This document shows, piece by piece, positions 4,949 through 29,851 of a stretch of DNA of 39,780 nt (within the stretch, counting starts at the first letter, position 1; every line of letters begins with the position of its first letter). A program made the translations under genes and the position numbers. Origin of the DNA: a virus; the UHGV virus genome UHGV-1378608. One strand, written 5' to 3'. Below the pieces are notes generated by a model that saw only the letters and a list, made by a program, of their open reading frames with translations, was not told the origin of the DNA and searched no databases.

Positions 4949-4968
4949 TACTGTATATTTATACAGTT
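4949..4968 (+). promoter_or_regulatory. LexA (SOS) box TACTGTATATTTATACAGTT
   Basis: Perfect CTGT-N8-ACAG with AT-rich centre, near-identical to the E. coli consensus TACTGTATATATATACAGTA; 20 bp upstream of the ATG at 4988, with GGAGA RBS at 4975-4979. Confidence 0.75.
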
Positions 4969-4987
4969 ATTGCTTGGAGAAGATAAG

Positions 4988-5252: not shown

Positions 5253-5268
5253 GGCCGCGAAAGCGGCC
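5253..5268. other. GNRA-tetraloop hairpin ggccgc-gaaa-gcggcc
   Basis: 6-bp perfect stem with GAAA loop just 3' of the LexA-controlled gene and 1 nt before the 12-bp palindrome; no strong T-run on either strand. Confidence 0.4.
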
Positions 5269-5269
5269 T

Positions 5270-5281
5270 GTGACATGTCAC
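5270..5281. repeat. Perfect 12-bp palindrome GTGACATGTCAC (copy 1 of 3; 14-bp TGTGACATGTCACA here)
   Basis: Exact palindrome recurring at 22503-22514 and 25578-25589, each in an intergenic position. Confidence 0.6.
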
Positions 5282-5288
5282 ACTCAAG

Positions 5289-5429
5289 CTATGACAAACC
5301 TATGTACCCTGCTACACCAGATAATATCAAAACAACTGCTACAGCAAATTCACCGTCTTCAATGATACATTTACGATTCATAACGCCAAGGGCAACAAGC
5401 ACAAATACAACAAGAATAAAAGCAATCAT
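5289..5429 (-). CDS. Small hydrophobic peptide (46 aa, MIAFILVVFVLVALGVMNRKCIIEDGEFAVAVVLILSGVAGYIGLS)
   Basis: Not in the ORF track (under 60 aa); ATG at 5429 with AGGA 7 nt upstream; two hydrophobic segments; sits right after the 824-aa virion protein gene. Confidence 0.3.
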   Translation of the reverse strand: MIAFILVVFVLVALGVMNRKCIIEDGEFAVAVVLILSGVAGYIGLS

Positions 5430-5438
5430 TTCTCATCC

Positions 5439-7913
5439 TTATTGCGGAGTGACATCCTGTGGTCGCCACCAGTATGTCTGGTTAAACTCTTTCTTCGAAC
5501 GTTGCTCCATTTTACGCAAATAGCCTGGTGAAAAATACTCCTGCATCTGGTTAAAGATCATGTGATCAAGAGCTGCCTTCAAGTACCAGAGATTCGCACC
5601 TGGCATCAGCCCTTTCCCAAGTTTCACCAGATCACCACCAGTCTGCTCGTTCTTCCCTTCCACAGCATTTAATGGTATGCCCTGAGCTATCTTCACTACG
5701 TCATCAACCAGGCCAGCTACCGGGCCAAGCATCGACGCCAGCGCGCCGCTTCCGTATCTAGTGTGATCTGACAATAAAAAGTCACCGTAAAGGCCAAGAC
5801 CACCACCTTTCAGTAGAGCACCAAGCCAAAATTTAGCAGCATCTTCTCCTGTCATCTCGCGAGGATTACGACCAGACGCAAGGTCGTTAAGTTGCTGCGA
5901 CAAAGCGCCAAGAATGGTCGTACTAGCAATAAACGTCGCAATATATGCCGCACGCCCACCAGCAGACGGCATACCCATAGCGCGTGACCAGTGACGCATA
6001 ACCACCGAGATAGGGAACGATTTAAACAGGAAAACACTTCTCGTTAATTCACCTTTCCATGTTCCACGCTGAATACCAGAACCGGTTATCAGTTGCTCAC
6101 GTGCTCCCGGTGTAATAACAGCCATATCAACTTCTTCAGTTACGGCACCGAGCAGTTTACGCATTGCCTCAAATTTCACGCGTTCAGGCTCACCAAGATG
6201 TTTAACTGCTGAATCAGGGATACGCATAATGCTTTCCGGTGTCAGCATCGTATTATTACCGTTCCCCCAGTCCTCCTGTTGCGCCAGCTTCCATACGCTC
6301 CAGTCTGTGTCAGTAATCCCTTTGCTTTTCAGAATACGAAAATCAGAGTCATCGAGGCTACGAAGGTCTGGTGTCCGTGACACTACTTCTCCCAGGCTTC
6401 CCATCATGGTTACGCCATAGGCGCGCTTGTGCGCATCTGACCATGCTGTAAGCCCACTGGCACGCATTACCGCCGTTGCCGCCCAACGAGACACTGACGG
6501 CCCCATATTATCCATCGCCCAGCGGTTAACGCTGCCAAGTAGAGATTCCATCGCCAGACCAGCGCGTCGCGCCCGCGCAAGCTCAGTACGGTTCGTTGGG
6601 TCCATAGCTTCAAGCTGGTTGCGGAATAACTGGTTCATTGGAAGGTTGGTCACCTTCGCAGACAGATACATGGTTCCAAGATCAGAGAACGATGACAGCA
6701 ACGCGGATCCGAGTCTGCTGGCAACCAGCCAGTTGCGGATATTGTCAGACCATTGCGCGATGTGCGGATTCGCTACAGGCTGTGTCTTTCCGGAAATAAA
6801 GTTGTACAGATTCTCTGTGTTGTTCGCCAGCCGCTCGACTTTACCGGTTTTACTCGGGTTAGCTGTTGCCGTTTCTGCCTTAACCTGATCAAGAAGTGAG
6901 CGGAAAACATGATCGGGGTTTGGACCATATGTTTCCACCAGAGAAATATCTTTACTGATACCTTCCAGGTGACCGACCATGATTTCCCATAGAGAGCGAT
7001 CGCCATAAAGTTGTTGATATTGGAGATAGGAATCTGCATCTTTGAAATGTATCTGTCGTGATGCATTACCACGGTTAGCACGTGCGCCGGAAATTCGCAT
7101 TCCGGTATCAGTAAGCTTATTCAGCCCACCAGTAGCGATCGTGTTATAAGCCTCTCCAAGAAATGCAGACAACTCGGCATCGTTCATCAGTTGTCCATCG
7201 GATCGGGTATAATATTTGCGATCCAGCTTACCTATAACATCGCTAACCCACTTATCCTTTGATACCGCCCCAACCTTTTCCATAGAATGATGTTGAGGGA
7301 TCCCCCAGTTTTCGAGATAGCCAATGTCCCCACCAGCATCATTAAACCGGCGGCGCAGCAGCTCTGTAACTTCTCTCCACGCCTTAGCACCTTTTCTTGC
7401 TTTAGCATTGCCAGTATTTTGCCCCCGCATTTCATATACCAGGTCACGTACGCCCGCTTCATCTTCAAACAGACCAAAAAAGCGAGGATCAACTGCTTCA
7501 AATGCCTCCTGCAATTGACTCAATGCATAATCACGAGTGGCTTTTGTTCTGGATTCAACAGAGAGGAAATTCGATTTACCGTCTGCATTAAAAGCAATAG
7601 TACGGTTAAGAGCGCCAAGTTTCCCATCAGCCCCTTGATAGCTATTGATAAATTTATCCAATCTCTGACGTGCGGCTATAGTGAGAGCCACACGACGTTT
7701 CTTTAATGCCGCTTCTCGCTGTAATTCTTCAGATGCCAATTGTGCTGCACGATACAACCGTTCTGATTCGGAAAGTTGTCGCCACGACATCGGGTCATCA
7801 CGAGCAATGGAGCGCATATTTCGATAAATGCGGTCTTCAATGTTCTGTATTTCTCGCGCCGTTAACGTGCGCTGCGCCGCCTGCTGGACCGCTTGTATAC
7901 ATTCCTGTCTCAT
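5439..7913 (-). CDS. Large internal virion/ejection protein (824 aa)
   Basis: Size and position within a run of three large genes downstream of tail tubular genes, as in podovirus internal core/ejection proteins; no catalytic motif recognised. Confidence 0.55.
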   Translation of the reverse strand: MRQECIQAVQQAAQRTLTAREIQNIEDRIYRNMRSIARDDPMSWRQLSESERLYRAAQLASEELQREAALKKRRVALTIAARQRLDKFINSYQGADGKLGALNRTIAFNADGKSNFLSVESRTKATRDYALSQLQEAFEAVDPRFFGLFEDEAGVRDLVYEMRGQNTGNAKARKGAKAWREVTELLRRRFNDAGGDIGYLENWGIPQHHSMEKVGAVSKDKWVSDVIGKLDRKYYTRSDGQLMNDAELSAFLGEAYNTIATGGLNKLTDTGMRISGARANRGNASRQIHFKDADSYLQYQQLYGDRSLWEIMVGHLEGISKDISLVETYGPNPDHVFRSLLDQVKAETATANPSKTGKVERLANNTENLYNFISGKTQPVANPHIAQWSDNIRNWLVASRLGSALLSSFSDLGTMYLSAKVTNLPMNQLFRNQLEAMDPTNRTELARARRAGLAMESLLGSVNRWAMDNMGPSVSRWAATAVMRASGLTAWSDAHKRAYGVTMMGSLGEVVSRTPDLRSLDDSDFRILKSKGITDTDWSVWKLAQQEDWGNGNNTMLTPESIMRIPDSAVKHLGEPERVKFEAMRKLLGAVTEEVDMAVITPGAREQLITGSGIQRGTWKGELTRSVFLFKSFPISVVMRHWSRAMGMPSAGGRAAYIATFIASTTILGALSQQLNDLASGRNPREMTGEDAAKFWLGALLKGGGLGLYGDFLLSDHTRYGSGALASMLGPVAGLVDDVVKIAQGIPLNAVEGKNEQTGGDLVKLGKGLMPGANLWYLKAALDHMIFNQMQEYFSPGYLRKMEQRSKKEFNQTYWWRPQDVTPQ

Positions 7914-7918
7914 TTAAT

Positions 7919-9721
7919 TTAACCTCTCAAGAAACACGCCACAGCAACATCAAACAGGCTGGAATCCTGTATTGCCTGCTCACTTTCCCTGTTCGCTTCA
8001 TCCAGTACTTCACGCGCACTGCGCGATTGTGGATTACCATCATCATCCAGCACGGTGATTATCATGTCCGGAGATTCAAGCAGCGAGTCTTCAGCTATAC
8101 GCAGATCAATATCTCCTGCCGGATCTGCCATCATTTTTTGTTCTGTCTGTTGCAATATCTTACCGGGCTCAAAAGGAGCTACTTCGTCTGGCGTCCTGAC
8201 CTCTGCTGTTTTATAGAATGAAACAGCCTGAGCATTAAGTTCACTTTCTGCCTGCTGTCGTCGTGCCAGTTCTGCTCGAGCTTCAAAAAACTGACCGCCA
8301 GGCTCATGCGGTGCCAACGCGTTACGGGAAAATTCCAGGCGCTCTTGTGCCTGCCGGATTCGTTGGTCAATATCGCGAAGTCTGACCTGTTTATCTGATC
8401 GAGCACGAGACAAAGCTTTACCGCTACCGTTTGGCTCTTCTGCAAGAATTTGTGCGCGCTGTTCAGTGAGATTTTCAATAATTCGTTGGCTATTAGCGAT
8501 TTCAGACTGGTAAACCTGTCTATCGCCACGCGGCAAAAGCTGCGCGGCCTGTTCTTCAAGCAACCGATTTTCTATAGCGCGCGCCGTTACTCCATCATCT
8601 ACAGATGACAGAGCCTCATTAACTGCCTGAGACAGCAGACTCTTGCGCCCAGGAATTTCACTGAAAGATGCAGACTCAACAATGCTGGCAACGTCTACAG
8701 GTCTCCCCTCGCTAACATCAGACATAGCTTTTCTCAGAGCCTGAATGTGAGAATTGCGCGAAAGCACGTTGATCGGCACGCCGGGCGCAATATCAATTTC
8801 AGCATGATGAGCGGCATTCGCCGCCAGTGCAGCATCAACATCAACTGGTGAAAAATTTGCTGCGTTTGTAGACTCGCCGCGAGAGTTAATAAATCTGCCG
8901 ACACCACCAAACGCCACCCCAAGAACAGCATCAATAGCAATTGCCTGTCGATCCAACACATCATACTGGTTAGCCATTTCGCTATAGCCACCATCACGAA
9001 GCGTTTTTGCAGTAAGCCCACGCTGTGCCATACCGAACGCAATATTTGTACCTGCGGCATAGGCAATATCTGGCGTTGCACGTACTGCTGTTGCTGCGGC
9101 GCGTCGCACTGAACTCTCACCCGTCCGCGCAAGCTGAGCCGCCACACCTTCCGCCAGCGCACCACCAGCACGTAACCCGAGGCTCATAGGGATCAGTGTT
9201 CCGGCACCAGCAGTAATGCCCTGCACTAATCCCGCTTCCTGCGCCGTCCTGAAATCAACACCCTGTGCTGTCAGCCGTTCAAACTCAGAAAAACCCTGTA
9301 GCGAAGTTACCGCCGCTGCACCTCCGACAGGACCACCGAGCGTTGTACCGACAACAGCCTGCCCGCCCATATCGAACAACCCATAAAGAACCTGCCCGGC
9401 GGTTCCGGTTGTCGCGGCATCAGGCGTCAGCTGCTTAACCTGCTGCTCTGCTAGTTTTCTCTGCTCGGCAATGTATGAAACTGAAGTGTCATTGAGCGAG
9501 GTGTTTTCGTTAACAAACTGAGCAATCGGGGATACGATTTTATCCATCCCTGCCCAGAGCAACTGATCTGGCTTTGCCACCAGCCCGGAGTACAAACCAG
9601 ACAATGCCGCTCCTACAGCATTGTCGAAAAAACCAACATCGCTGTTAAAACCAGCTGGATTTGATGCTGCTTCGTCAAGCTGCTGATTCTGGTTTACTGG
9701 ATTAAGGCCAAAGTAACTCAT
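7919..9721 (-). CDS. Internal virion protein (600 aa), Ala/Gly-rich
   Basis: Position in core-protein run; long Ala/Gly-rich segments and a charged coiled-coil region. Confidence 0.5.
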   Translation of the reverse strand: MSYFGLNPVNQNQQLDEAASNPAGFNSDVGFFDNAVGAALSGLYSGLVAKPDQLLWAGMDKIVSPIAQFVNENTSLNDTSVSYIAEQRKLAEQQVKQLTPDAATTGTAGQVLYGLFDMGGQAVVGTTLGGPVGGAAAVTSLQGFSEFERLTAQGVDFRTAQEAGLVQGITAGAGTLIPMSLGLRAGGALAEGVAAQLARTGESSVRRAAATAVRATPDIAYAAGTNIAFGMAQRGLTAKTLRDGGYSEMANQYDVLDRQAIAIDAVLGVAFGGVGRFINSRGESTNAANFSPVDVDAALAANAAHHAEIDIAPGVPINVLSRNSHIQALRKAMSDVSEGRPVDVASIVESASFSEIPGRKSLLSQAVNEALSSVDDGVTARAIENRLLEEQAAQLLPRGDRQVYQSEIANSQRIIENLTEQRAQILAEEPNGSGKALSRARSDKQVRLRDIDQRIRQAQERLEFSRNALAPHEPGGQFFEARAELARRQQAESELNAQAVSFYKTAEVRTPDEVAPFEPGKILQQTEQKMMADPAGDIDLRIAEDSLLESPDMIITVLDDDGNPQSRSAREVLDEANRESEQAIQDSSLFDVAVACFLRG

Positions 9722-12231
9722 TGCGGAATATCTCCGGAGAATCTCTGACGCTTCTGTGTCAGATCAAGAACAACGGGAGAACCATCATCTTTTAGCAGAT
9801 AACCAGTACCAAGTTTCACCAGGTACTGACTATCGCCGTAACTTTGCAAACCATACTGACCAGGCGGTGTTTTTATCCCTGTGCCAACAACTTGTTCATT
9901 CCAAGCCTGATTAACCTGCTTATCGAATTGCTCTGCAGACATTCCCCACGGCAAAAGAACATTCCCCATTCCGTTATAGTCATGCACGCCACCTGTAGCT
10001 ACGTTAACAGCCTGTTTCCAGATATCATTGTCAATTTCGCCTGATACCACGCCTTTTTTCGCCATCACACCAGCGTAATAGTCCTTTGCGATCTCGTATG
10101 CCATTGATGCCCCCTGAGCATCACCAGCAAATGCATCCTTCACCATGTCAGAAAACTCAAGGCGAAGATCAGCATCTTTAGGCATCGGAATACCTTTCGC
10201 GTCATCAGTACCTTTACGAGCCGCCGCGCCAGCAAGAATTGTCTGCGCAGCGGTTTCAGGAGACACGGAAACATCCGGATTAAACCAGTTTTTTTCTGCC
10301 AAAATACCACCTGGCTTATCCATCAGTATCCCGGCAACGGCAGCAGATGGAGCGTTGGCACTGATCTGCTGTAGTGCTGACATATACACCTGCCCACCAC
10401 CAGTGCTCTGCCTGATGGTATCGAGATATGCTGCCTGTTGGGAAACGGGCGCATCACGAAAGAAAACACCGATCTGATTGGCCTCGTCTTTGGAAAAGAA
10501 CGTCAGTGGAGTGCCATATGACTTAGCAAGGTCACTGACCTGAGCAGCACGCAAGGCAACGCTCTGTCCAAAGTTATCCTTATTGCTCATGTCGATAGGC
10601 TTTGCCTGTCCGGCGGCAAGAGAGAACTGTACAGGATCAGCCTGTCGCTGCTTTATCACCTGACTTGCAGCCGACACAACGTTGTCATAAAGAGCGGCTC
10701 GTGCCGCATAACCCTCCCCTGTCTCACCAGTATCCGGGCGTAATTGCTCAACATATGCTGTAATGCTGCTTGTCGGCATGTTGCGGAAAGAGCCTATATA
10801 CTGTCCGGCGATTTGCGTATTTCTGAACTCGGTATATCGCAGGTTTCCTTCTCTGACTCCATAAGCTGCAATAAAATCAGCCTCACCAGGTGGGTTAGGA
10901 AATTCAACGCCACGCATATACGCAGCTGTCGCATCGCGAACCTGGCTGTCAATCATCGTTTTATATTCAGCCTGCTGCTGCCGACGCAGTTGATCCGCCT
11001 GTCGCATAAAACTTGCCTGCGCCTCAGAAGATGCCGCATCGAATGCTGCATTACCGGTATAGCGTTTGGTGTTGGTTGGAATTGTTGATAAACCAAGTGC
11101 TGCACTGACACCAGCAGTTAACTGCTGATCACTGTATGGCTGGCTACCGTTCTCATGATGGATAATGGCTGCACAAAGCGCCTTCAGGGTATCAGGATTA
11201 GATGCATCGAGAGGCTCATCAGCAGAAACGCCAAGTTGTTCGCACACTGCTTTGATATACGACATAGTGTCATTTTTATCAGTAGGCGGTGCCCAGCGAT
11301 TAATTATCTCGCTGACGGTATCGATACCCTGCCGCTGATACGACATCAGGTTACGCCCTAATGCACGAATCCCGTGCTCAGGTGTTTCGAATTTAGCAAA
11401 TCGACCATCATCACCGGTCTGGCCTACCCACGGATTAGTTTTGCTGTATTCGAGATTTCCTGGGTTATTGTTGCGTATGCCACGGGCACGCTCGGAAGAG
11501 TCACTATCTGCTACAGCACGGCGAGCTCCAGCAGCAATATCACTTAACTCGCCATTACTTTGGATGAATGCGGTCGCATTGTTTGCCGACCACTGGGACA
11601 ATGCGGCATCAGCAACCTTCTCTTTAAACTCGATTTTCTTGGCCTGTATTTGCTCGTCGCTCCAGCCATGCGCAATGCCATAATCCTCAATTTGCTGGAA
11701 AGTTTGCTTATTAGCCAATACGTATGCGGCGTTGTCGCCATACAATGCTGCGGCATTTTTACCATTGTTCAGCAGCGTCGCCTGAAACTGGCCTTCTTCG
11801 TAGGCATTTATTTGCCCTATCTCGTGCCGCCCGGCCTGCATAGTGAACTGAATACGCTGCTGCTGCGCCTGCTGCATGAAAGCATTACGAGCCTGTTCAT
11901 CCGGCAGCGACATAGCCAGTTGTTCGACCTGAGCATCAAACTGCTGCGTATACTCATGGCCTTTTCCAATAGCATTTTTCCCTTTCAGGTTAAGCAATCC
12001 TGTTTCAGGATTATTCAGCAGATCGCTGCTTATCTGACTGAGGTTAAGAGATGCCTCCTGAGCCAGAGCGATATTGGCACGCTGTTTTGCCTGCCCCAAA
12101 ACATCAATTGCCTCTGTCCCTGCCCGAACAAAAGCATCACCAATACCTTGCTGAGAAAACGTCTGCAAGCCTGCTGACTGAACTCCACGACTCTCAACCT
12201 GACGTCCGGATACTGTTGGTACGACTGGCAT
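9718..12231 (-). CDS. Internal virion protein (about 837 aa), possibly with a cell-wall-interacting domain
   Basis: ORF 9718-12306 with likely true start at Met 12231 (ATGA overlap with upstream gene); contains motif GIRNNNPGNL...RWAPP that I tentatively recall from virion-associated proteins, not verified. Confidence 0.5.
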   Translation of the reverse strand: MPVVPTVSGRQVESRGVQSAGLQTFSQQGIGDAFVRAGTEAIDVLGQAKQRANIALAQEASLNLSQISSDLLNNPETGLLNLKGKNAIGKGHEYTQQFDAQVEQLAMSLPDEQARNAFMQQAQQQRIQFTMQAGRHEIGQINAYEEGQFQATLLNNGKNAAALYGDNAAYVLANKQTFQQIEDYGIAHGWSDEQIQAKKIEFKEKVADAALSQWSANNATAFIQSNGELSDIAAGARRAVADSDSSERARGIRNNNPGNLEYSKTNPWVGQTGDDGRFAKFETPEHGIRALGRNLMSYQRQGIDTVSEIINRWAPPTDKNDTMSYIKAVCEQLGVSADEPLDASNPDTLKALCAAIIHHENGSQPYSDQQLTAGVSAALGLSTIPTNTKRYTGNAAFDAASSEAQASFMRQADQLRRQQQAEYKTMIDSQVRDATAAYMRGVEFPNPPGEADFIAAYGVREGNLRYTEFRNTQIAGQYIGSFRNMPTSSITAYVEQLRPDTGETGEGYAARAALYDNVVSAASQVIKQRQADPVQFSLAAGQAKPIDMSNKDNFGQSVALRAAQVSDLAKSYGTPLTFFSKDEANQIGVFFRDAPVSQQAAYLDTIRQSTGGGQVYMSALQQISANAPSAAVAGILMDKPGGILAEKNWFNPDVSVSPETAAQTILAGAAARKGTDDAKGIPMPKDADLRLEFSDMVKDAFAGDAQGASMAYEIAKDYYAGVMAKKGVVSGEIDNDIWKQAVNVATGGVHDYNGMGNVLLPWGMSAEQFDKQVNQAWNEQVVGTGIKTPPGQYGLQSYGDSQYLVKLGTGYLLKDDGSPVVLDLTQKRQRFSGDIPQ

Positions 12232-12776
12232 TATAATCCTCCGGGTAATCTGGTTCCTGCTGCTGCCACGATTGGCGCAGGAGTGCTTTGAGTAAACGGA
12301 CTCCACGTCCCACCAAACATCTGGTACGCACCGTATGCCTTCAGAGGCGCAGTGAGCAATGTTGTTGCTGCTCCCACATTCCCCTGTTTACGGGCTGAAC
12401 TGGCTTCTGCTTTATAGTTGGCAGCCTGAACCTGATAACCGTAAGCCTCGCGTTGCGCGTTATTCACCGTCGTCAGCGAATCAAGAGCGCCAAACTGAGC
12501 AGTGTCACCAAATATATCCAGCGCATTACCGGTAGATAAATCAGCGCCGGTAGCCCCCATTGTCGCCGCCTGTGTACCAAGCCGCTGTCGAGTCTCTCTG
12601 CGCCGTTGCTCAGCTTCAGCGTTACCCCTGTTTATTGCATCATTTGCCTGAGCTGTGGCTATATCTGCGTTCGCTTCTGCAGCCGTCGAGGCATACTTTC
12701 CCTGTTGGTACTGGGTGTATGCCTGAATGCCACTCATGGCGAGCATTGCGCCACCAGCAATAACCGGATCGCACAT
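12231..12776 (-). CDS. Internal virion protein (181 aa), Ala-rich
   Basis: Size and position analogous to small internal core protein of T7-like structural modules. Confidence 0.45.
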   Translation of the reverse strand: MCDPVIAGGAMLAMSGIQAYTQYQQGKYASTAAEANADIATAQANDAINRGNAEAEQRRRETRQRLGTQAATMGATGADLSTGNALDIFGDTAQFGALDSLTTVNNAQREAYGYQVQAANYKAEASSARKQGNVGAATTLLTAPLKAYGAYQMFGGTWSPFTQSTPAPIVAAAGTRLPGGL

Positions 12777-16645: not shown

Positions 16646-16689
16646 TCCTGCAATAAAGGGGCCGAAGCCCCTTGTCTGATTCGCGAGGC

Positions 16690-17034: not shown

Positions 17035-17035
17035 C

Positions 17036-17473: not shown

Positions 17474-17524
17474 CTTCTTTCTCCATTAGTGGGTCTGTTA
17501 CGACCCACAGGTTAATAACAGGCG

Positions 17525-18517
17525 TTACACCACACGGGCTTCTGTTTCCAGAAGCGCATCAGTCTCACGGATTGGTACACCACGGAATGAAGTCCACCAC
17601 TCGCCTTCTGTCTCTTTTACGCTGATCGCCAGAGATGTTTTCTCCAGAGATTGCAGATCAAGAGCCTGGCCTACAGTGCGGTTCATGTAGAACACCGGGC
17701 GGCCCATGCCACGGTTTGGAATGCGATGCAGTGCTTTAACCATCAACTTCGCAATATTTGCTGCAGAGGAAGGTTCTGAAAGATTGCTGACATCGATGTT
17801 TGCAATGCGAACAACATAACGCCAGTCACGCAGAGCAAGCCCGTTGTCCCATTTGTAATGGGTACGGTAGCCTTCGTACTTGCCGCCATTCGCATCTTCC
17901 AGTGTCACCTGGCCTTTATCTTCCATCTGGATGCCAGCCTTCTGCCCTTTCGGGAAGATGCCATGCACGGTGTTTTCGCCCCACACCACTAACCAGATTG
18001 AGGTGTTATCTGTACCCGTGCCACCAGCATCAATGATGTTCTGAGCATTACCCGCAGACAGGCTGGAATAGCGGGAGGACAGTCCCATAAACTGCTGAGG
18101 GTTAACGCTGGAATCACCATAAAACAGCGTCTGCGCCATCTGCTGATTCATCGCTTCAATAAATGCGCGGTCTTCAGACAGGCGGAATTCGGCGGTATTG
18201 CCGTTCAGATCAGCCAGTGACTTATCGACTTCAGCATAGGTTTCCAGCATGCCAACGGAATCGGTTACCTGCACTGTGGTTGATTTGCTTGGCTGTACGC
18301 CATAGTTCAGCAAACGCCAGGTAGCTGAAGGTAAACCAGAACGAATGGTGGTTCGGTGTCCGGTAGGAAGGTTCCCTTCGACAAAAGGCATATCCTGAAG
18401 GATCGGGTTAGTTTGACCGAGAAGCTCGATAATCTTATCGACTTTCCCGTTTGGATCGACGCGCTTACCCCAGTCAGCCAGCGTTAGCGCAGTTAAGCCT
18501 TTAACAGCCATTGTCAT
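17525..18517 (-). CDS. Major capsid protein (HK97-fold type), 330 aa
   Basis: Size, composition and position after the scaffold gene. Confidence 0.7.
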   Translation of the reverse strand: MTMAVKGLTALTLADWGKRVDPNGKVDKIIELLGQTNPILQDMPFVEGNLPTGHRTTIRSGLPSATWRLLNYGVQPSKSTTVQVTDSVGMLETYAEVDKSLADLNGNTAEFRLSEDRAFIEAMNQQMAQTLFYGDSSVNPQQFMGLSSRYSSLSAGNAQNIIDAGGTGTDNTSIWLVVWGENTVHGIFPKGQKAGIQMEDKGQVTLEDANGGKYEGYRTHYKWDNGLALRDWRYVVRIANIDVSNLSEPSSAANIAKLMVKALHRIPNRGMGRPVFYMNRTVGQALDLQSLEKTSLAISVKETEGEWWTSFRGVPIRETDALLETEARVV

Positions 18518-18525
18518 TTCCTCTC

Positions 18526-19227
18526 TTATTTGCCATAGAGCACTTCGGCCGCACTACGCTGGCCTTCATTACCACCGGTGACCATGCCATCTTCAGACAT
18601 CGCCTTTCCGATTTTCACGAACGTCTTGACCAGATCAGGGTGATTACCCAGCCCGGTGGTGTTCAGATATTCTTTGAGTTCAGGTGTCCCGAACTGGTCA
18701 AGCGCACGCTGTGCGGCGCTAAGGTTAGAAATCAACTTGTCGCCACCGATTTCTTTGTCAGCTTTTACATCCGCAGCCCACTGCTCGGTTGTTTTCTGCC
18801 AGGCTTCTGCCTGGCGCTGCTGAACACCTGCCAGAATCTTCGGATAAGCATCAACCAGCTTTTGCGCTTGCTCGTTGGTCAGGTTAAGTTCTCGCGCCAC
18901 CGGCTCGAATTCCTTCAACGCTTCTGTATCCAGCTCTACGCCTTCGGCAGCCTGAAACTCGTACTTCTCCGGCGCACCCTCCGGTTTATCGTCGTCATTT
19001 TTTTCACCCTGCTTATCGCTTTCAGGCTTTTTGTCATCAGCAGGTTTATCGCCATCAGCAACAGGTTGTGGCTTATCACCTTCCTGTTGTGATGGATCAC
19101 CAACTGGAGCAGGGTTATCACCTGCAGGCGCTGACGGTTCTGACGCAGCCGGAGCTACTCCACCATCGACTGGTTGCTCATTGCAAAGACGGCGATACAG
19201 CAAACGCTCAAATAAACTCATGATCAC
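18526..19227 (-). CDS. Scaffolding protein
   Basis: Acidic, Pro/Ala/Glu/Lys-rich low-complexity N-half and helical C-half; located between portal and capsid genes. Confidence 0.6.
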   Translation of the reverse strand: MIMSLFERLLYRRLCNEQPVDGGVAPAASEPSAPAGDNPAPVGDPSQQEGDKPQPVADGDKPADDKKPESDKQGEKNDDDKPEGAPEKYEFQAAEGVELDTEALKEFEPVARELNLTNEQAQKLVDAYPKILAGVQQRQAEAWQKTTEQWAADVKADKEIGGDKLISNLSAAQRALDQFGTPELKEYLNTTGLGNHPDLVKTFVKIGKAMSEDGMVTGGNEGQRSAAEVLYGK

Positions 19228-19520
19228 TCCTGTTCACTGGCCTCTTTGGCCATCTTCAAATACTGTTCAGGGCAATGCGCCATAACGCGCTGAAACAGTT
19301 CCAGCGCCAGATTGCGTTGCCCCTCATTAAATGCCATTGCCATAGCGTCCATCGGCGAGATAGCGGAAAACACACGGCCTTTCTCCAGTACCGACCAGAC
19401 AACCCGACGCCCCTGTTCACAGCTCATGACAAAGCGAATGTCATCAATTTCACGCTGTGCCATGTCACGTTGCTTACGGGCGTTTTCTTCTTTCAGTTGA
19501 TCGTCTTCGTAATCTGTCAT
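19224..19520 (-). CDS. Hypothetical head protein (98 aa)
   Basis: Translationally coupled between portal and scaffold genes. Confidence 0.4.
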   Translation of the reverse strand: MTDYEDDQLKEENARKQRDMAQREIDDIRFVMSCEQGRRVVWSVLEKGRVFSAISPMDAMAMAFNEGQRNLALELFQRVMAHCPEQYLKMAKEASEQE

Positions 19521-21196
19521 TGTGATTGCCCACCCTGACCACTAACTGCATTCGCCATAGCTGACAAAACACTCGGATCCGAAGTTTTAGCTTCGCTTAG
19601 CGTCTTGGCCCCCTGTGCCGCCGCCATCCCCATCGCCATCATTTGTTGCTGCTGTTGCTGCTGTGCCCGTTGCTGGCGAGCCTGCTCAACCTGTTCCTGC
19701 GGAACAATGACGGTTGGAGACACTCCGGACATATCAGCGAATGCATCGATCGCCTGATCAACGTTGAGTTTGTCGAGAGCTTCTGGTTTCGCTTGCGCAA
19801 GTTGACCAATGAAGTTAACCGTGGACGCCAGACTGGACAGGCCGATAGACTTCTGCGCCTGAGCCATGACGGAAATGTATTCGACCTTCAGGGGCATGCC
19901 TTCCATCGCGTCAGGCGGTGGCGGCAGCATGTTTTTACGCACCATCATCGAGAAAGCGCGATCAATGAGAGGATTAAGACATTCGTCGTTCAGACGCTCC
20001 AGAACCGGCCCCAACATCAGAAGTTTTTCTTCTTTCATTTCGATCACCGCTTCAACAGGCATCGAGCGGGTATTGATGTTCTGCAACATCATGAACAGAT
20101 CGACAAAGTAGGCGCTGTTAATGATTTGGCGAGTGTCCTGAATGTCTGCCACCAGATCTGCTGTACTGGGGTTAACCAGATAAGCAGGCCTGAAACCATC
20201 CTGACCAGTAATCTGATCGATATACGTGATGTCGCCAGGAAGAAGGGAGGCGCGCTGATTCTTGAGGGAAGTCGGAGCAACCATCGGCGGATTGGTGGCT
20301 TTATCAATCAACTGCGACTTGCGCTTCTGGAGAAGCTGCAATGCCTTAACAGGTCCAAGCGCCAGCATACCCGGGCATGATGATCCATAAACATCTTCGC
20401 CGTTAACTTCCCAGCGCGGAGCCATAATTGGAAACTCATCGAATCCGGACTCACGCAACAACTTGTCGTTATCGCCACCAACCTCGTAATAAACCGATTT
20501 GAATGGCTTGTTCTTGCTATCCAGCTTCGATGTATCGCGGTCAATGTTCGGGTAAACCGAATGCATCACTTCGATCCACTTCTCGTAGGTGCCGCTTTCC
20601 CACATGCTTTTTACGGATTCGCTGACGTTATTTAGCCCGAACTCCTGAACAAGCTGACGAACAGTCATAGAGAACTTGCGAAAACAGGTGTCAACACTGC
20701 CACGAGGTGAGTTAGCCAGGTAGTAACTGCCTATCGGGAATGGCATTGTGCGAATGATGTCCTCATCATCCTCCAGTACCGCCATTGCACCGGTGCTGTA
20801 TGTGCCGAGGCTTCCGTATAACTGCGGCAGCGACTGATAGAGATTCGACTTATTGAACATATCGTTCATGCGGTTCTGCACCGCCTCAAGCCACAACTTA
20901 ACAGGGCCATAATCCATCATTTCAGGATCTGGCGTAGCCAGGCGAAACCACGGACGCGCGGGGCTTGTGATGCCTGACATCATGCCGCTGGCGAGAGTGC
21001 GCGCCGCCATAGTCCCGGTCGAATCAATAATGCGTGTATTGCGTCGATCGTTACGGTTGACCTCAGAAGTCAGAAAGCGGGAACCACGCGGGTTGATGTA
21101 ATCACTCAACTCGCGCCAGTGCGGCTCGAACGACTGACGCTCGCTTTCAAGTTGTGCGAACTGTTTGTTCAATCGCTCTTTAGTTGTTTCCGCCAT
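19517..21196 (-). CDS. Portal (head-to-tail connector) protein, 559 aa
   Basis: Size and position after terminase; Gln/Ala-rich C-terminus. Confidence 0.65.
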   Translation of the reverse strand: MAETTKERLNKQFAQLESERQSFEPHWRELSDYINPRGSRFLTSEVNRNDRRNTRIIDSTGTMAARTLASGMMSGITSPARPWFRLATPDPEMMDYGPVKLWLEAVQNRMNDMFNKSNLYQSLPQLYGSLGTYSTGAMAVLEDDEDIIRTMPFPIGSYYLANSPRGSVDTCFRKFSMTVRQLVQEFGLNNVSESVKSMWESGTYEKWIEVMHSVYPNIDRDTSKLDSKNKPFKSVYYEVGGDNDKLLRESGFDEFPIMAPRWEVNGEDVYGSSCPGMLALGPVKALQLLQKRKSQLIDKATNPPMVAPTSLKNQRASLLPGDITYIDQITGQDGFRPAYLVNPSTADLVADIQDTRQIINSAYFVDLFMMLQNINTRSMPVEAVIEMKEEKLLMLGPVLERLNDECLNPLIDRAFSMMVRKNMLPPPPDAMEGMPLKVEYISVMAQAQKSIGLSSLASTVNFIGQLAQAKPEALDKLNVDQAIDAFADMSGVSPTVIVPQEQVEQARQQRAQQQQQQQMMAMGMAAAQGAKTLSEAKTSDPSVLSAMANAVSGQGGQSQ

Positions 21197-21210
21197 TTCA
21201 ATGACTCCGG

Positions 21211-21417
21211 TTACTGACCAAGCAGCGTTTTACCGCTGGTATTAGCAGTTGATGTGTCGCCCTGAGAACCGGTAAGCAGCGTAGAACTACGACCAGCAGC
21301 AGCGCGACGGCGACGTGTTTCTTCGTCGCGGGCATCAACAACGGCGGCATCCTGCTCCTGTGGTGCTGCCTGAACTTCTGGTGTTGCAGGCACTGATGGT
21401 GAGCTACCCATGCACAT
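21211..21417 (-). CDS. Small hypothetical protein (68 aa)
   Basis: ORF immediately upstream of portal; Ala/Arg-rich; uncertain whether expressed. Confidence 0.3.
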   Translation of the reverse strand: MCMGSSPSVPATPEVQAAPQEQDAAVVDARDEETRRRRAAAGRSSTLLTGSQGDTSTANTSGKTLLGQ

Positions 21418-21507
21418 ATCAATGACTCCGTACGCAATTAAATTATTACCAATTTAACCATATATGATTTATTTATCGTAGGTAGTTGACATTTAACGCA
21501 CAAATTA

Positions 21508-21522
21508 TTACCTTTAAGGTAA
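21508..21522 (+). promoter_or_regulatory. Operator-like palindrome TTACCTTTAAGGTAA
   Basis: Perfect TTACCT-N4-GGTAA site in the non-coding gap between the late genes and the tRNA; a TTGACA hexamer lies at 21486-21491. Confidence 0.45.
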
Positions 21523-21845
21523 GCAAAGGGTTCATTCCGGTTATTAACCTGACTGGCTTGTCGTTAAATTGAACAGGTGGAGTGAGCTTTTATTTTGAGC
21601 AGTACGGCGTATGGCACATGCGCCGATAGCGGTATGGATACGTTTAAGGGGCACCCTCCCTTGCTCGGGCAAACGAACCAGGTAGCCGGAATGTGCAAGT
21701 CGAGCGGTTTTATTCCGCGCACGGGGATTCACCATCCCGGCGATTCGGTGTGACGCCTCGGAAGAGACGAGGGTACAACGATGAGAGCATTTATGGAGCT
21801 GCGACAAAGTGTGGCGCACTTAACAGGCTAAGTGCTCTCAGCGTT

Positions 21846-21922
21846 GTGGCATTAGCTCAGTTGGACAGAGCAACCGCCTTCTAAGCGGTTGGTCGCAGGT
21901 TCGAATCCTGCATGCCACGCCA
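21846..21922 (+). tRNA. tRNA-Arg, anticodon UCU
   Basis: 77 nt; acceptor stem GTGGCAT/ATGCCAC, D-arm GCTC-AGTTGGACA-GAGC, anticodon stem ACCGC/GCGGT with loop CTTCTAA, T-arm GCAGG-TTCGAAT-CCTGC, discriminator G and encoded CCA. Confidence 0.85.
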
Positions 21923-21965
21923 GAATCACGCCTAAGGACCGTGATGCCAGAAGTTCCAGGGGCTT

Positions 21966-22008
21966 GGCGGTGATGGTTTCCCTTGAAGGACTATCACCGC
22001 CCTTTTTA
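21966..22008 (+). terminator. Terminator-like hairpin downstream of tRNA
   Basis: 9-bp perfect stem ggcggtgat/atcaccgcc followed by CTTTTTA. Confidence 0.5.
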
Positions 22009-22085
22009 CAGCAGGACGCCATTGCGATGACTTCATGCTGTAAACCAGTACAGCCACGGAAGGCATAACTCATTGCTTCCAGTTT

Positions 22086-22109
22086 GCCCGGTTCGCCGGG
22101 CATTTTTTT
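22086..22109 (+). terminator. Rho-independent terminator (GC stem, TTCG tetraloop, T7 run)
   Basis: gcccgg-ttcg-ccgggc followed by ATTTTTTTA; ends 11 nt before the RBS and ATG of the next gene. Confidence 0.6.
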
Positions 22110-22120
22110 AAGGTGAGATT

Positions 22121-22498
22121 ATGAACGACCAGCAAATCGAAAAAGAAATCATTGAGAAAGGCAAAACGGCACCGCGAATCACCCCGCAGCACATCGAAGA
22201 CGTGATTATTAGTGAGCACTATTTCACGGCTGCAGAAGGGGTTCATGGCGCTAATGAGCTTTTAAAACCGCATGAAAGCCCAATTGACTATTACCAGGAA
22301 GCGCACCCTGCTGAGTCACTTCTGACCTTCTGCGTTCTGGTGCTGCGCAACGGATTTACTGTAACCGGAGAAAGCGCCTGTGCAAGCCATGAAAACTTTG
22401 ATGCAGAAATTGGTCGGAAGATTGCCCGGCAGAATGCTGTAAACAAAATCTGGATGCTCGAAGGTTACTTGCTGAAGCAGAAGCTAAGCGAGCAATAA
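22121..22498 (+). CDS. Gp49-like phage protein (125 aa), moron
   Basis: Motifs ITPQHIEDVI, HYFTAAEGV and FTVTGESACASHENFDAEIGRKIAR match my recollection of the phage Gp49/66 family; RBS aaggtgag. Confidence 0.55.
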   Translation: MNDQQIEKEIIEKGKTAPRITPQHIEDVIISEHYFTAAEGVHGANELLKPHESPIDYYQEAHPAESLLTFCVLVLRNGFTVTGESACASHENFDAEIGRKIARQNAVNKIWMLEGYLLKQKLSEQ

Positions 22499-22502
22499 CA
22501 CC

Positions 22503-22514
22503 GTGACATGTCAC
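22503..22514. repeat. Perfect 12-bp palindrome GTGACATGTCAC (copy 2 of 3)
   Basis: Exact repeat of the palindrome at 5270 and 25578; 5 bp after the stop of the Gp49-like gene. Confidence 0.6.
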
Positions 22515-22612
22515 AAACAGCCGGCCGATGAGCTGGCTTTGTTTTATCCTCATCAGAGGATATCAACGACATTATCCCCTCATAGGGATACGTTTTTCAT
22601 AATGACCGAAGA

Positions 22613-22627
22613 TTACCTTAAAGGTAG
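22613..22627 (+). promoter_or_regulatory. Operator-like palindrome TTACCTTAAAGGTAG (1 mismatch)
   Basis: TTACCT-N4-GGTAA family member about 30 bp upstream of the 22658 ATG. Confidence 0.4.
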
Positions 22628-22657
22628 AATCAGAAAAAAACCTAAAAGGGCCTGGAC

Positions 22658-23398
22658 ATGCTTGAATCACTTAAAGAATACCTATCTTCAACCGTTAATA
22701 CCGCTGCGCAAAGGGTCAGAAATCCAGTGTTTGGAGCGTTCGCACTGTCATGGTGCGCCTTTAACTGGAAGTCGATTTTATACTTACTCCTCAGCGACTC
22801 CAGCATCATCGACAAGATCACCTACATTTCCAGCAATAGCAGTTGGAAAACGGTATTAGCATTCCCATGTGTTTCAGCAATAATCCTGTGCGGCGGCATG
22901 CCCTGGATCAACAACGTGATTTCAAAGTGGCAAGCCAAACCTCTTGATAATTACGATTCGATAGAGAACCACCGGAAGGCCAAGCGCATTCATCGCGCCA
23001 CACGCCTGCAGCGCCTGAAGGCAAAGCACGATGTGACATACGACAAAGTTAAGACTGGCGCCGAAAAGGACATACAGGCTATGAAGGAAAGAATTACGGA
23101 GTCACAGGCCAGGATGGGTGAGCTAACGTCGGAAAGAGATAGGCTCTCCGATAAGGTTTTGGAATTGAATAAGAAGCTGGAAAACATGCAATCAGTGGCT
23201 GCAGCGTTAAAGATTGAGGCAGAAAAGTCCGCCAGAATGCTTGAAGATAGGGAGGCCAAAATAAATAATCTCATACAAGAATTAAAGGAAAAAGAAAAGG
23301 AAAGTATCGTATTGCATATGGGCCATGAACCCTTGCGAAAAACATATACATCACAGGCTGAGAGAATGATTGCTGAAGCCGTGAAAAATAAGCAATAA
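22658..23398 (+). CDS. Membrane-anchored coiled-coil protein (246 aa), moron of unknown function
   Basis: N-terminal hydrophobic segments, then a long charged heptad-like region; visibly AT-rich coding sequence; opposite strand to flanking late genes. Confidence 0.5.
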   Translation: MLESLKEYLSSTVNTAAQRVRNPVFGAFALSWCAFNWKSILYLLLSDSSIIDKITYISSNSSWKTVLAFPCVSAIILCGGMPWINNVISKWQAKPLDNYDSIENHRKAKRIHRATRLQRLKAKHDVTYDKVKTGAEKDIQAMKERITESQARMGELTSERDRLSDKVLELNKKLENMQSVAAALKIEAEKSARMLEDREAKINNLIQELKEKEKESIVLHMGHEPLRKTYTSQAERMIAEAVKNKQ

Positions 23399-23399
23399 A

Positions 23400-24875
23400 T
23401 CACGCAAACGGGTCGTAATCTGTGATGGCCTTGCCTTGCTGGTTCTGCTGACCGGGAATTCGCAGGCGCTTCGACACAGGGAAAGCAAACGTCAGCAATA
23501 GCGCATCGCCTTTCCCCGGCGAACGCCCAAGTCGTTCTTTGATATCTTCCTTCGGTTCGATAACGATTTTACCGTCCACGCGAACTTTGTACTCTGCCGT
23601 CGACAGGTCGTCCGCTGTTTCCTGGTCATCCAGCATACCGCCCAGCCTCAGCCATGTCTTACATGAGTTGAACATCTCCCCACGCTTGTTGAGCATCTGC
23701 GGGTCAGTAGACGCGCCACCGAACGGAACAAGTTGCCATGTCCTGCCCCAGCCGTCACCGATGGACTTCAGCCCGGTGCCGTAACCGAAGTCGATGAACA
23801 CCGCGTCAGCCTGGTACTGGTCTTCAAAGTCGGCGATTCGCTTAGCCATAATCAAATCGTCGGTGGTCTTGTTGCCGGTCCAGAGCACTTTGCTGTGCAG
23901 CCCCTGCCGCAGGTATATCACCGCGTCATCAACTCCGGAATACGCCGGGTCGACGCCGATAATCACAGGAGCGTGAGCAACCTGCCCGGCGGTAACCACC
24001 CGCTTCATGGCCTCGTCTGTAAGGCCTGTTGGGATAAACTGGAGTTCTGACGCGTCAGGGAAGATCCCCCGCACGCGGACCTTCACGAAGTCGCTGTCTT
24101 CCCCGTAGTCATCAACCCATTTCTGCAACTGCTGTTTGTTAGTGCCTTCCACCGTCCGGCTGTCAATCTGCGCAGTTTTCCAGCGGTGTTTATATTTGCG
24201 GAAACATTCGCGGAAACGCCCGGTATTACGCGTCGGGTTCCCGAACGCCACCCAGATGATTTCGGTGTCTTCGTCCGTAAGCGCACCCTCAGCAACTTCC
24301 CACACCAGATCCGCAATGTTCGACGCTTCATCGAATACCACGATGATGCGTTTGCGCTCGTTGTGTAGTCCGGCGAATGCCTCAGTGTTGTGCTCAGACC
24401 AGGGTATTGCGTCAGCCCGCCACCGCTTGTCGTGCCCAGGATCATTGCTGTACATCGCGGTAGCGGTACAGGTAAACCAGTCTTTCGTGATGGCAAGGTT
24501 CGACCACTTGATAATTTCCGGCCAGGTCTTCGTTCGTAGCTGGTTGTCGGTGTTGGCGGTCACCACGACCTTACAATCCTCGCAAGTGGACATGCCCCAG
24601 TTGATCAGCATTGAGATGAATGCGGATTTACCAATACCGTGACCAGAAGCGCGTGCCAGCATAAGCGGCTGATAGCGCGTCTCTGGATTCTGCAGGTGAT
24701 CACGTATCTCTCGGAACGCATCGGCCTGCCACTGACGTGGACCGGTGGCATGTGCCAGTTCAGTACCCTCTTCCCCCCACGGGAACGCATAGAGGGCATA
24801 GCCAAGCGGATCGTGAGTGAACCCTGCAATATCCTCGATCAACTGCTCTTCAGGAGATAACGCTGTATCTGTCAC
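23400..24875 (-). CDS. Terminase large subunit
   Basis: 491 aa; Walker A-like LARASGHGIGKS, ATPase N-half and nuclease C-half with conserved acidic residues; follows small subunit with overlap. Confidence 0.85.
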   Translation of the reverse strand: MTDTALSPEEQLIEDIAGFTHDPLGYALYAFPWGEEGTELAHATGPRQWQADAFREIRDHLQNPETRYQPLMLARASGHGIGKSAFISMLINWGMSTCEDCKVVVTANTDNQLRTKTWPEIIKWSNLAITKDWFTCTATAMYSNDPGHDKRWRADAIPWSEHNTEAFAGLHNERKRIIVVFDEASNIADLVWEVAEGALTDEDTEIIWVAFGNPTRNTGRFRECFRKYKHRWKTAQIDSRTVEGTNKQQLQKWVDDYGEDSDFVKVRVRGIFPDASELQFIPTGLTDEAMKRVVTAGQVAHAPVIIGVDPAYSGVDDAVIYLRQGLHSKVLWTGNKTTDDLIMAKRIADFEDQYQADAVFIDFGYGTGLKSIGDGWGRTWQLVPFGGASTDPQMLNKRGEMFNSCKTWLRLGGMLDDQETADDLSTAEYKVRVDGKIVIEPKEDIKERLGRSPGKGDALLLTFAFPVSKRLRIPGQQNQQGKAITDYDPFA

Positions 24876-25468
24876 TGATTACCATCCTGACGTTCTTTGA
24901 GTCGCTTCCTGGCTGCTGCTATGCGATCAGCAATTGTCACATTCACATTAACATCCAGGCGTTCTTTGAATGCGTTGACGTCGACGTGCTTACCAATCAG
25001 TTCTAGGTTCTTCACCTTGTCAGGCCATTTAATTTTTTTGAGGATTGTCTCTATCGAGTCCTCGTTCATGTTCATGATGGTCGATGACAGATCAAAGCCG
25101 CTAAGCGTAGTGCGCCATATTTTCGGCCACTCGCGGATTGGCTTAAGACTCCCATCGTCGTTGAGGATATCAATCACGTCCATCTGGTCGATCTCCACCA
25201 GGCGCATGAGAACGTAATCAGCACTGACGCGCATTCGTTTGTTGCGCTCCTCCATCAACTCGGCAATCCGTTTTTTAATGCGTTCATCACGCATCATGAC
25301 ACTGGCTTTAACTGCCGCTGTATTTGGGGAGAATCCTGCGTTAATCGCTGCCTGAGTCTGGTTTTCAGGCGTTTTGATGTATGACTGGCAATAAGCCTCC
25401 TGCATTGCTGTTAGTGGCTTAAATTGCGTTGATTTGCGTTTATAGGTTTTAGGTTCAGCAGACATCAT
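24872..25468 (-). CDS. Terminase small subunit
   Basis: Likely start at MMSAEP (25468) with GGTGG RBS; the ORF-track N-terminal extension to 25546 runs through a terminator hairpin and direct repeats and is probably not coding. Confidence 0.7.
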   Translation of the reverse strand: MMSAEPKTYKRKSTQFKPLTAMQEAYCQSYIKTPENQTQAAINAGFSPNTAAVKASVMMRDERIKKRIAELMEERNKRMRVSADYVLMRLVEIDQMDVIDILNDDGSLKPIREWPKIWRTTLSGFDLSSTIMNMNEDSIETILKKIKWPDKVKNLELIGKHVDVNAFKERLDVNVNVTIADRIAAARKRLKERQDGNQ

Positions 25469-25475
25469 AACCACC

Positions 25476-25509
25476 GTGGTAATAGTTACCGTTGTGGTAA
25501 TAGTACCAT
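25476..25509 (-). promoter_or_regulatory. Tandem direct repeats GTGGTAATAGT(T)ACC x2 immediately upstream of the terminase small subunit (candidate late promoter/activator site)
   Basis: Two adjacent copies, each also an inverted arrangement GGTAA-TAG-TTACC, between the terminator and the TerS start. Confidence 0.35.
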
Positions 25510-25510
25510 G

Positions 25511-25537
25511 CAAAATAAAGCCGCCATAGTTGGCGGC
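25511..25537 (-). terminator. Rho-independent terminator separating the early-left operon from the packaging genes (minus strand)
   Basis: Stem gccgcca/tggcggc with 4-nt loop, followed on the minus strand by TTTATTTTG. Confidence 0.55.
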
Positions 25538-25577
25538 AGTATTCAAAACCCATCAAATTCATCATGCATAATCTAAT

Positions 25578-25589
25578 CGTGACATGTCA
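25578..25589. repeat. Perfect 12-bp palindrome GTGACATGTCAC (copy 3 of 3)
   Basis: Overlaps the stop codon of the 113-aa Cys-rich gene, about 110 bp upstream of the TerS start. Confidence 0.6.
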
Positions 25590-29848: not shown

Positions 29849-29851
29849 GAT

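Follow-up and report, generated by a model that had tools for sequence, protein, structure and literature searches.

The 12-bp palindrome GTGACATGTCAC occurs three times in the viral genome UHGV-1378608 (39,780 nucleotides; 'the window' hereafter means this whole stretch), and its copies are probably the cognate DNA-binding sites, or operators, of a 112-aa Cys-rich protein encoded on the minus strand at 25587–25925 and belonging to the family of epsilon15 gp49. This reading follows from the association of gene and site, the form of the site and the predicted fold of the protein. As to what a bound protein would do, the copies flag the 3′ ends of transcription units, and we tentatively suggest an effect on termination in the direction of read-through (antitermination), which seems possible but falls short of probable.

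The window is the complete genome of an epsilon15/phiV10-like temperate podophage (genus Uetakevirus), with structural genes 97–98% identical to those of phiV10 and late genes on the minus strand. Exact copies of the 12-mer (n = 3) lie at 25579–25590, 22503–22514 and 5270–5281, here termed sites A, B and C, and all three fit a wider 14-bp dyad, Y-GTGACATGTCAC-R. A preliminary description of this DNA had already pointed to three exact copies far above chance, and had correctly read the copy at 5270 as the 14-bp TGTGACATGTCACA, while placing copy A one nucleotide too low (25578–25589). The excess is clear: the expected mean is 0.01 exact copies, and none of 100 dinucleotide-preserving shuffles of the window reaches three. 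With up to two mismatches allowed, the count is 4 against 1.8 expected, which is not significant, so that the signal resides in the exact copies. The fourth of these hits is GTGCCATGTCAC, with one mismatch, at 19457–19468 within the coding sequence of a gp5-like gene. At this spot phiV10 and many IMG/VR relatives carry GTGACATGGCAC on the opposite strand, and the near-copy is probably a coding coincidence rather than a site.

Across 107 distinct contexts the full element is a 14-bp dyad, Y-GTGAC-NN-GTCAC-R, in which the half-sites GTGAC and GTCAC are invariant and the spacer is always 2, while the centre is AT in most contexts and TG, CG, AC or CT in other lineages; 98% of the contexts have Y in the flank at −1 and 98% have R at +13. 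These flanking positions do not pair as RNA (C..A in 17 cases), the contexts hold no compensatory changes, and the 12-mer folds at −1.2 kcal/mol with four pairs and no U-run, in a hairpin that is not consistently formed in context. Invariant half-sites, a free centre, non-pairing flanks and a weak hairpin together argue for the signature of a dimeric DNA-binder, not an RNA structure. The 12-mer is accordingly rejected as an intrinsic terminator or RNA hairpin in its own right; the neighbouring hairpins are the terminators. The likeness of TGTGA/TCACA to CRP half-sites at the wrong spacing had been recognized beforehand and holds: the element reads TGTGA-N4-TCACA, the CRP consensus is TGTGA-N6-TCACA and that of FNR is TTGAT-N4-ATCAA, and a CRP/FNR-type site is rejected on spacing. 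No N6 form lies beside the sites, and the window holds just one other GTGA-N4-TCAC, at 19089.

The half-sites are also those of matS, the site of the host protein MatP that organises the Ter macrodomain in E. coli and its relatives, an identity that formed no part of the preliminary description: matS is GTGACRNYGTCAC, or GTGAC-RNY-GTCAC (PMC6907758). A survey of 500 Escherichia and Salmonella prophages found no true matS, which is apparently counter-selected there (PMC3603311), and because true matS is absent from prophages the 12-bp phage form is a distinct signal. When spacings of 0–8 were scanned in 11 genomes that bear the gp49-like gene, the sole other spacing was one GTGAC-N3-GTCAC, the true matS spacing, at 19491 in Vibrio K303. 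Three N2 copies are found in that genome too, together with a ParA-like partition gene, so that it looks like a phage-plasmid.

The dyad keeps company with one gene. The Cys-rich gene of the window falls in phrog_536 ('transcriptional regulator'), a family in which the protein has no Pfam or NCBIfam match, and unrelated phages that carry such a gene have one to three copies of GTGAC-NN-GTCAC per genome where about 0.04 would be expected; the palindrome usually encloses the gene's TGA stop. This pairing extends through podo-, myo- and siphophages of Enterobacterales and Vibrio. Over the gene stop, N15 has GTGACTGGTCAC (with two further copies elsewhere), Pantoea AH07 has GTGACCTGTCAC (with one exact copy inside its own Q-like gene), a Yersinia P2-like phage has GTGACGCGTCAC (and no other copy), and a Rouxiella lambdoid prophage has an exact copy followed by a terminator (and no other within the 10-kb flanks read). 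Pectobacterium ZF40 carries an exact copy 2 nt past the stop and two more besides; the stop is without a copy in Serratia P2-like prophages, which have one exact copy 1.5 kb downstream, and in Vibrio K303, whose three copies lie elsewhere. A scan of bacterial genomes at species level gave 33 loci, all from Enterobacterales except one metagenome-assembled genome labelled Pseudomonadota; the motif is present in 32 of the 33 (50 copies in 611 kb, about 0.6 expected), and at 21 loci the stop codon is embedded in the palindrome.

As a reverse control we took 80 lambda-terL loci from IMG/VR. The motif count is zero in the 77 loci without the gene (1.39 Mb), and each of the three with an N15-gp46-like gene holds exactly one motif, at the stop of that gene. 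A locus search with the family alignment reached close phiV10-like IMG/VR loci only, and the diversity of the family was sampled from phage records and the species-level genome scan; as far as seen, the gene is found only in phages of Enterobacterales, Vibrio and Aeromonas. Because the TGA stop is normally part of the site, gene and site would be inherited as one module.

At its N terminus the 112-aa product has a basic helix (ERKxAQRxR), invariant across the family; its other parts are a strand-helix-helix core, a long helix and four conserved Cys. In an AlphaFold2 model (mean predicted local distance difference test score, pLDDT, 72.5) the protein models as a ribbon-helix-helix (RHH) DNA binder, and the best structural match of the predicted fold is MatP bound to matS. 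At the level of sequence no homology to MatP was detected: hhalign of the family against E. coli MatP gave a probability of 0.2%, neither PF06303 nor PF17414, both of which are carried by real MatP proteins, hit any of 30 family members at E ≤ 0.01 or even at E ≤ 10, and a PDB profile search with the family and a Foldseek search against PDB both came back empty. Foldseek against viral structures returned a fragment of the same family only, and a protein search with MatP as query returned near-identical E. coli MatP only. The gp49-like proteins form a small family; at E ≤ 0.001, 218 cluster representatives among 1.84 billion belong to it. One representative, P0279, is 7287 aa long and has six stretches that match the Cys-cluster part of the profile (61–96; E 1e-52), and may be a giant protein in which this zinc module recurs. 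We found no paper on the protein family or the 12-mer; papers on ZX5 and telomere phages do not mention the gp49-like gene or the dyad, and in the GenBank record of epsilon15 the annotated sites are those of repressor, IHF, RNase III and integrase, and the palindrome is not listed.

Positional conservation in related phages, proposed earlier as a check, is evident in this group. Sites A and C occupy the same places in 8/8 Uetakevirus genomes examined and site B in six, from hosts of the genera Escherichia, Salmonella, Enterobacter and Klebsiella. All three sites are syntenic in epsilon15, phiV10, Tyrion, SPC32H and 65FD, and BUCT711 retains A and C. The DNA around the sites is only 70–82% identical or unalignable among these phages, which argues that the exact 12-mer is under selection. 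Variants are few: phiV10 copy A has one mismatch (GTGACATGTTAC), and copy B of 65FD is GTGACCTGTCAC, with the centre CT. In phiV10-like loci of IMG/VR, 75 of 78 have an exact copy A and the other three a copy with one mismatch; 50 of 73 have an exact copy B, about nine a copy with one mismatch and about 13 none. Copy B occurs with at least four different accessory genes, which rules out its dependence on the Sf6 gp66-like gene that neighbours it in the window. The phiV10 record (DQ126339.2) is linearised in the middle of palindrome A (39101–39104 plus 1–8), right after the stop of gene 55, and since the record ends split this palindrome a scan of the linear record yields two copies only.

The sites are concentrated at the ends of genes and ahead of terminators. 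Among the contexts, which are distinct in sequence and phylogenetically related, 59% of sites lie within −3 to +5 nt of the end of an open reading frame (ORF) that is 100 aa or longer, where random positions give 2.1%. A terminator-like hairpin with a T-run starts within 40 nt of 50% of distinct sites; the corresponding figures are 4.8% for random positions and 7.3% for the ends of generic ORFs of 150 aa or more. The arrangement is polar, with the palindrome preceding the terminator in 54 cases and following it in 13 (4:1), and the commonest gap between dyad and terminator is 4 nt. A composite in which a stop codon is followed after 2 to 4 nt by the dyad, and the dyad after a further 0 to 4 nt by a hairpin and T-run, recurs behind many unrelated accessory genes; in one late operon of the Serratia prophage L183 it separates the scaffold-like gene from the major capsid gene. 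Co-oriented genes follow the flagged terminator in the window, Rouxiella, Omnitron and the Serratia prophage, and those in the window (terS) and in Serratia L183 (the major capsid gene) are essential late genes.

These figures bear on two roles that had been suggested for the palindrome. As a late-activator binding site it fares well in so far as it appears to be the site of a regulator, one tied to the adjacent Cys-rich gene, a link that had not been proposed, and badly in so far as it does not behave as a promoter element: a −10-like hexamer lies at 16–18 nt in 6.6% of site-directions against 3.9% at random positions, and the combination of GTGACA with a −10-like hexamer is found only at site A of Uetakeviruses. 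A −35 element or late-activator site is rejected across the sites for want of such enrichment, and promoter hexamers being not enriched at the right spacing makes a classical late-activator site unlikely. Of the proposed RNA processing or termination element, the statistical link to termination stands, and the 12-mer itself has no credible RNA structure.

In the window, the gene-boundary settings reported earlier are confirmed, B and C following plus-strand gene stops by 4 and 25 nt and A lying over a TGA stop. Stem-loops had been reported beside two copies; these are present, and in fact all three copies lie near hairpins, that of copy A (25520–25537) being some 40 nt off. Dyad A (25578–25591, unstranded, as are the other two; cGTGACATGTCACa) holds the TGA stop (25587–25589) of the gp49-like gene (epsilon15 gp49 / N15 gp46 family) at the end of the early-right operon, upstream of the intrinsic terminator tA and of terS. 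Terminator tA (25520–25537, minus strand; GCCGCCaactatGGCGGC plus TTTATTTT) lies about 40 nt downstream of the dyad on the late strand, and the epsilon15 record has an annotated terminator at the equivalent place; the order of gene stop, dyad, terminator and terS is likewise that of epsilon15, Rouxiella L096 and Omnitron. Dyad B (22502–22515; cGTGACATGTCACa) lies 4 nt past the stop of a plus-strand accessory (moron) gene (22121–22498; Phage_gp49_66 family, N4 gp49 / Sf6 gp66, PF13876, E 2e-35), convergent with terL, and 4 nt ahead of an intrinsic terminator (22519–22538, plus strand; AGCCGGCcgatgaGCTGGCT plus TTGTTTTA) that is oriented for this gene and whose hairpin is annotated as a terminator in the phiV10 record. 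Dyad C (5269–5282; tGTGACATGTCACa) is 25 nt past the stop of the plus-strand gene at 4880–5245 and, on the late strand, 7 nt past the last stop of the structural operon, that of a 46-aa membrane protein gene (5289–5429, minus strand) equivalent to phiV10 p21 and epsilon15 gp18. It abuts terminator tC (5253–5268, minus strand; GGCCGCtttcGCGGCC plus CTTAAATTT), which directly follows it on the late strand and is annotated as a terminator in the phiV10 and epsilon15 records.

A second dyad, ATTACC-N5-GGTAAT, which is annotated as the prophage-repressor operator in the epsilon15 record, occurs 15 times in the window at up to two mismatches (0.9 expected), at positions that include 4896–4912, 21507–21523, 22612–22628, 25467–25483, 25485–25501, 29851–29867, 29913–29929, 31859–31875, 32244–32260, 32956–32972 and 33018–33034. 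It marks the 5′ ends of units, in the immunity region and upstream of the ant-like gene, gp3, a 246-aa gene and terS (where it is a tandem pair); several units therefore have a repressor operator at their start and a GTGAC dyad at their end. The 246-aa gene (22658–23398, plus strand; phrog_4780, function unknown) lies in some 820 bases that the window has in addition to phiV10, at 22580–23403 between terminator B and the end of terL; the repressor-operator-like dyad at 22612–22628 precedes it, and it ends 2 nt from the terL stop. The longest terS ORF (minus strand) starts, as in the phiV10 annotation, at TTG 25546 and would take in tA and both repressor-type operators; more likely terS starts at ATG 25466 or 25463, matching the shorter terS of epsilon15. 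A tRNA-Arg (anticodon TCT; 21846–21922, plus strand) lies in the island of accessory genes between terL and gp3, as it does in several relatives.

On the reading that we favour, the protein would be made from the last gene of the early-right operon and would act as an RHH dimer, each 14-bp dyad being read by one such dimer; the basic helix stands at the N terminus of the protein and the 4-Cys cluster at its C terminus. It would sit on the dyads, further copies of which would have been placed at the 3′ ends of transcription units just after stop codons, and would act on RNA polymerase reaching the end of a unit; such action is suggested by the place of the gene as the last of the early-right operon, by the fusion of its site to its stop and by the way in which the other sites flag 3′ ends before terminators. 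Polymerase may then be let through the adjoining terminator, the protein being a Q-like factor that is loaded on DNA and needs no dedicated promoter, and this read-through would couple early transcription to terS–terL and carry late transcription past the accessory-gene islands. We lean to read-through because the genes that follow flagged terminators are co-oriented and in part essential late genes, to which polymerase would no longer pass under a stable block.

Several observations weigh against read-through at terminators as the common function. The known RHH proteins serve as repressors, as antitoxins or in DNA architecture, and none is known to be an antiterminator; on that ground the predicted fold favours a block or an architectural role. 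The terminator at site B faces the accessory gene, and read-through there would yield antisense terL RNA; about 30% of phiV10-like loci lack site B or have it in degraded form. Among carriers of the gene, N15 and AH07 possess a Q-like antiterminator of their own. Intragenic copies occur in gp08 and a cII-like gene of ZF40, in repA of N15 (GTGACTGGTCAC at 33237–33248), in the Q-like antitermination gene of AH07 (exact 12-mer, 34430–34441) and in a structural gene, for an internal virion protein, of BUCT711 (exact 12-mer, 26462–26473); those of AH07, N15 and BUCT711 are too rare by chance to ignore and are unexplained by a terminator-linked model. Two Vibrio K303 copies lie 19 nt upstream of start codons, one of them that of terS. 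A gap between dyad and hairpin that varies from 0 to some 40 nt speaks against strict geometric coupling, and because the contexts counted are related sequences the percentages given above for placement overstate the number of independent events.

The same binder might serve another purpose, as a MatP/matS-like system by which the phage genome is organised or tethered, a reading that we consider unlikely on balance. Two to four sites may be bridged into loops, or MukBEF or divisome proteins may be recruited or excluded, and the placement at gene ends may merely reflect where a TGA-containing palindrome is tolerated. The phages in which the gene has been seen are those of Enterobacterales, Vibrio and Aeromonas, the clade that has MatP; the sites are few, scattered and in some cases intragenic, and A and B bracket the terminase operon of the window. 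To this can be added the identity of the half-sites with those of GTGACRNYGTCAC (PMC6907758). However, the protein has no sequence homology to MatP (hhalign 0.2%; no PF06303 or PF17414 at E ≤ 10) and is without the MatP four-helix bundle and coiled-coil, bridging cannot be general because many carriers have a single site, and neutral placement leaves the 4:1 preference for the 5′ side of terminators unexplained. Rather than letting polymerase through, the bound protein might also form a transcriptional barrier (a roadblock or insulator) at unit ends and feed back on its own gene. RHH proteins being typically repressors, the predicted fold speaks for this; the gene's message would be cut short by the site over its stop codon, giving autoregulation, early functions could be switched off through the sites within ZF40 early genes and N15 repA, and B and C lie at boundaries between convergent units. 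Yet the composite lies inside a late operon in Serratia L183, between the scaffold-like and major capsid genes, and ahead of terS in the window, and at either place a stable block would cut off essential late genes for as long as the protein was present; a terminator is, besides, already on hand for stopping. We judge a barrier quite unlikely.

Other explanations do without the phage protein or without its binding to DNA. If a host protein such as MatP, SlmA or a CRP/FNR-family factor bound the palindromes, linkage to the phage gene would be incidental. The half-sites equal those of matS, the site of the nucleoid occlusion protein SlmA (GTGAGTACTCAC) has the same length and outer bases, and TGTGA/TCACA resembles CRP half-sites, but CRP requires N6, and the spacing is N2 instead of the N3 of matS, the only N3 copy in the 11 genomes scanned for other spacings being the one in Vibrio K303. 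True matS is, again, absent from the 500 prophages surveyed (PMC3603311). Linkage to the gene and the lambda-terL control, with no motif in 1.39 Mb of gene-less coliphage DNA and one at the gene's stop whenever the gene is present, make a host-factor site very unlikely. We give equally little credence to an element that acts as RNA, in which a 3′-untranslated-region (UTR) hairpin GUGA(CNNG)UCAC would affect termination, processing or mRNA stability, with or without the protein. The palindrome is transcribed as the last part of the message, between stop and terminator hairpin, and the N-terminal helix of the gp49-like protein is arginine-rich, as are the arginine-rich-motif (ARM) peptides that bind RNA; against this stand the four pairs (−1.2 kcal/mol) that do not form consistently in context, the invariant half-sites with unpaired flanks (C..A 17 times) and no compensatory changes, the perfect dyad symmetry with its free centre, as befits a dimeric DNA-binder, and the existence of intragenic and pre-ATG copies. 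The module junction for recombination that had been suggested earlier, through which accessory-gene cassettes would be exchanged, is in our view the most improbable of these explanations. Variable islands of accessory genes adjoin sites B and C, no fewer than four unrelated accessory genes in different phages have their end exactly 4 nt ahead of dyad B, and insertions relative to phiV10 lie within 10–65 nt of dyad-hairpin units. The mosaic breakpoints relative to phiV10, however, are beside the hairpins (5245/5253 and 22579) and outside the palindrome, which gives no support to the palindrome as the exact breakpoint; the genes on both sides of site A are conserved, the motif has no associated recombinase, and neither the strict linkage to one small DNA-binding gene nor the intragenic copies would be explained.

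With the operator reading preferred, a probable ligand can be assigned to phrog_536, a family without described function that is spread over podo-, myo- and siphophages, phage-plasmids (N15, phiKO2) and P2-like prophages. The wider proposals are more doubtful, namely that the module is either (a) a new class of DNA-loaded antiterminator that replaces Q in epsilon15-like phages and works locally at flagged terminators or (b) a mimic or competitor of MatP/MukBEF that structures or shields phage DNA. If true, temperate phages of Enterobacterales and Vibrio would have in it a self-contained unit of site and protein, a 'phage matS' that is 1 bp shorter than that of the host and whose reader is an RHH-zinc protein without sequence relationship to MatP. 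We know of no account of late-gene control in the epsilon15/phiV10 group, which includes O157 typing phages and serotype-converting Salmonella phages, and since a concrete candidate regulator and its sites can now be named the question is directly testable. That prophages share the half-sites of matS yet avoid true matS raises the question of whether the phage and host systems have a common origin or interfere with one another. A protein site between a stop codon and an intrinsic terminator is an unusual layout and could reveal a new form of termination modulation. We rate as new here a predicted RHH protein and its putative operator with matS-like half-sites in a terminator-linked, gene-fused layout.

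Among known systems, the SlmA site shares with the phage dyad the form of a 12-bp palindrome with outer bases GTGA....TCAC and a 5+2+5 layout; it differs at positions 5 and 8 and in the centre, and SlmA is a host protein of the TetR family. The RHH repressor–operator pairs (Arc, Mnt, CopG, MetJ and antitoxins) offer the same predicted fold, a short dyad-symmetric operator and a small protein borne by a phage or plasmid. The phage operator, in contrast, lies over the stop codon at the 3′ end of its gene and not at a promoter, the sites are terminator-associated, and the protein has an extra C-terminal Cys cluster and no partner toxin. Lambdoid Q and its binding element (QBE/qut) are alike in that the gene of a phage regulator is the last before the late genes, with a DNA site right downstream of it, then an intrinsic terminator and then terS, in the small protein with zinc-type cysteines, and in the proposed action on polymerase instead of initiation. 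Unlike Q, the gp49-like protein is homologous to none of the Q families, Pfam and NCBIfam giving no match, the dyad is not generally within a promoter (−10-like hexamers 6.6% versus 3.9%), several dyads may occur in a genome, some of them intragenic, no sigma-dependent pause element was identified at the dyads, and N15 and AH07 hold a Q-like gene in addition to the gp49-like module. With MatP/matS the phage system has in common its half-sites, identical in GTGAC...GTCAC, a short dyad that in the case of MatP is bound by one RHH dimer, few and scattered sites, and a host range, as seen for the phage gene, that coincides with the clade that has MatP. The two differ in that the phage site is 12 bp (N2) and matS 13 bp (N3), and in that the phage protein has no detectable sequence homology to MatP and has a 4-Cys cluster in place of the four-helix bundle and coiled-coil. 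The phage gene, further, is physically fused to one of its sites, and the phage sites stand at gene ends before terminators.

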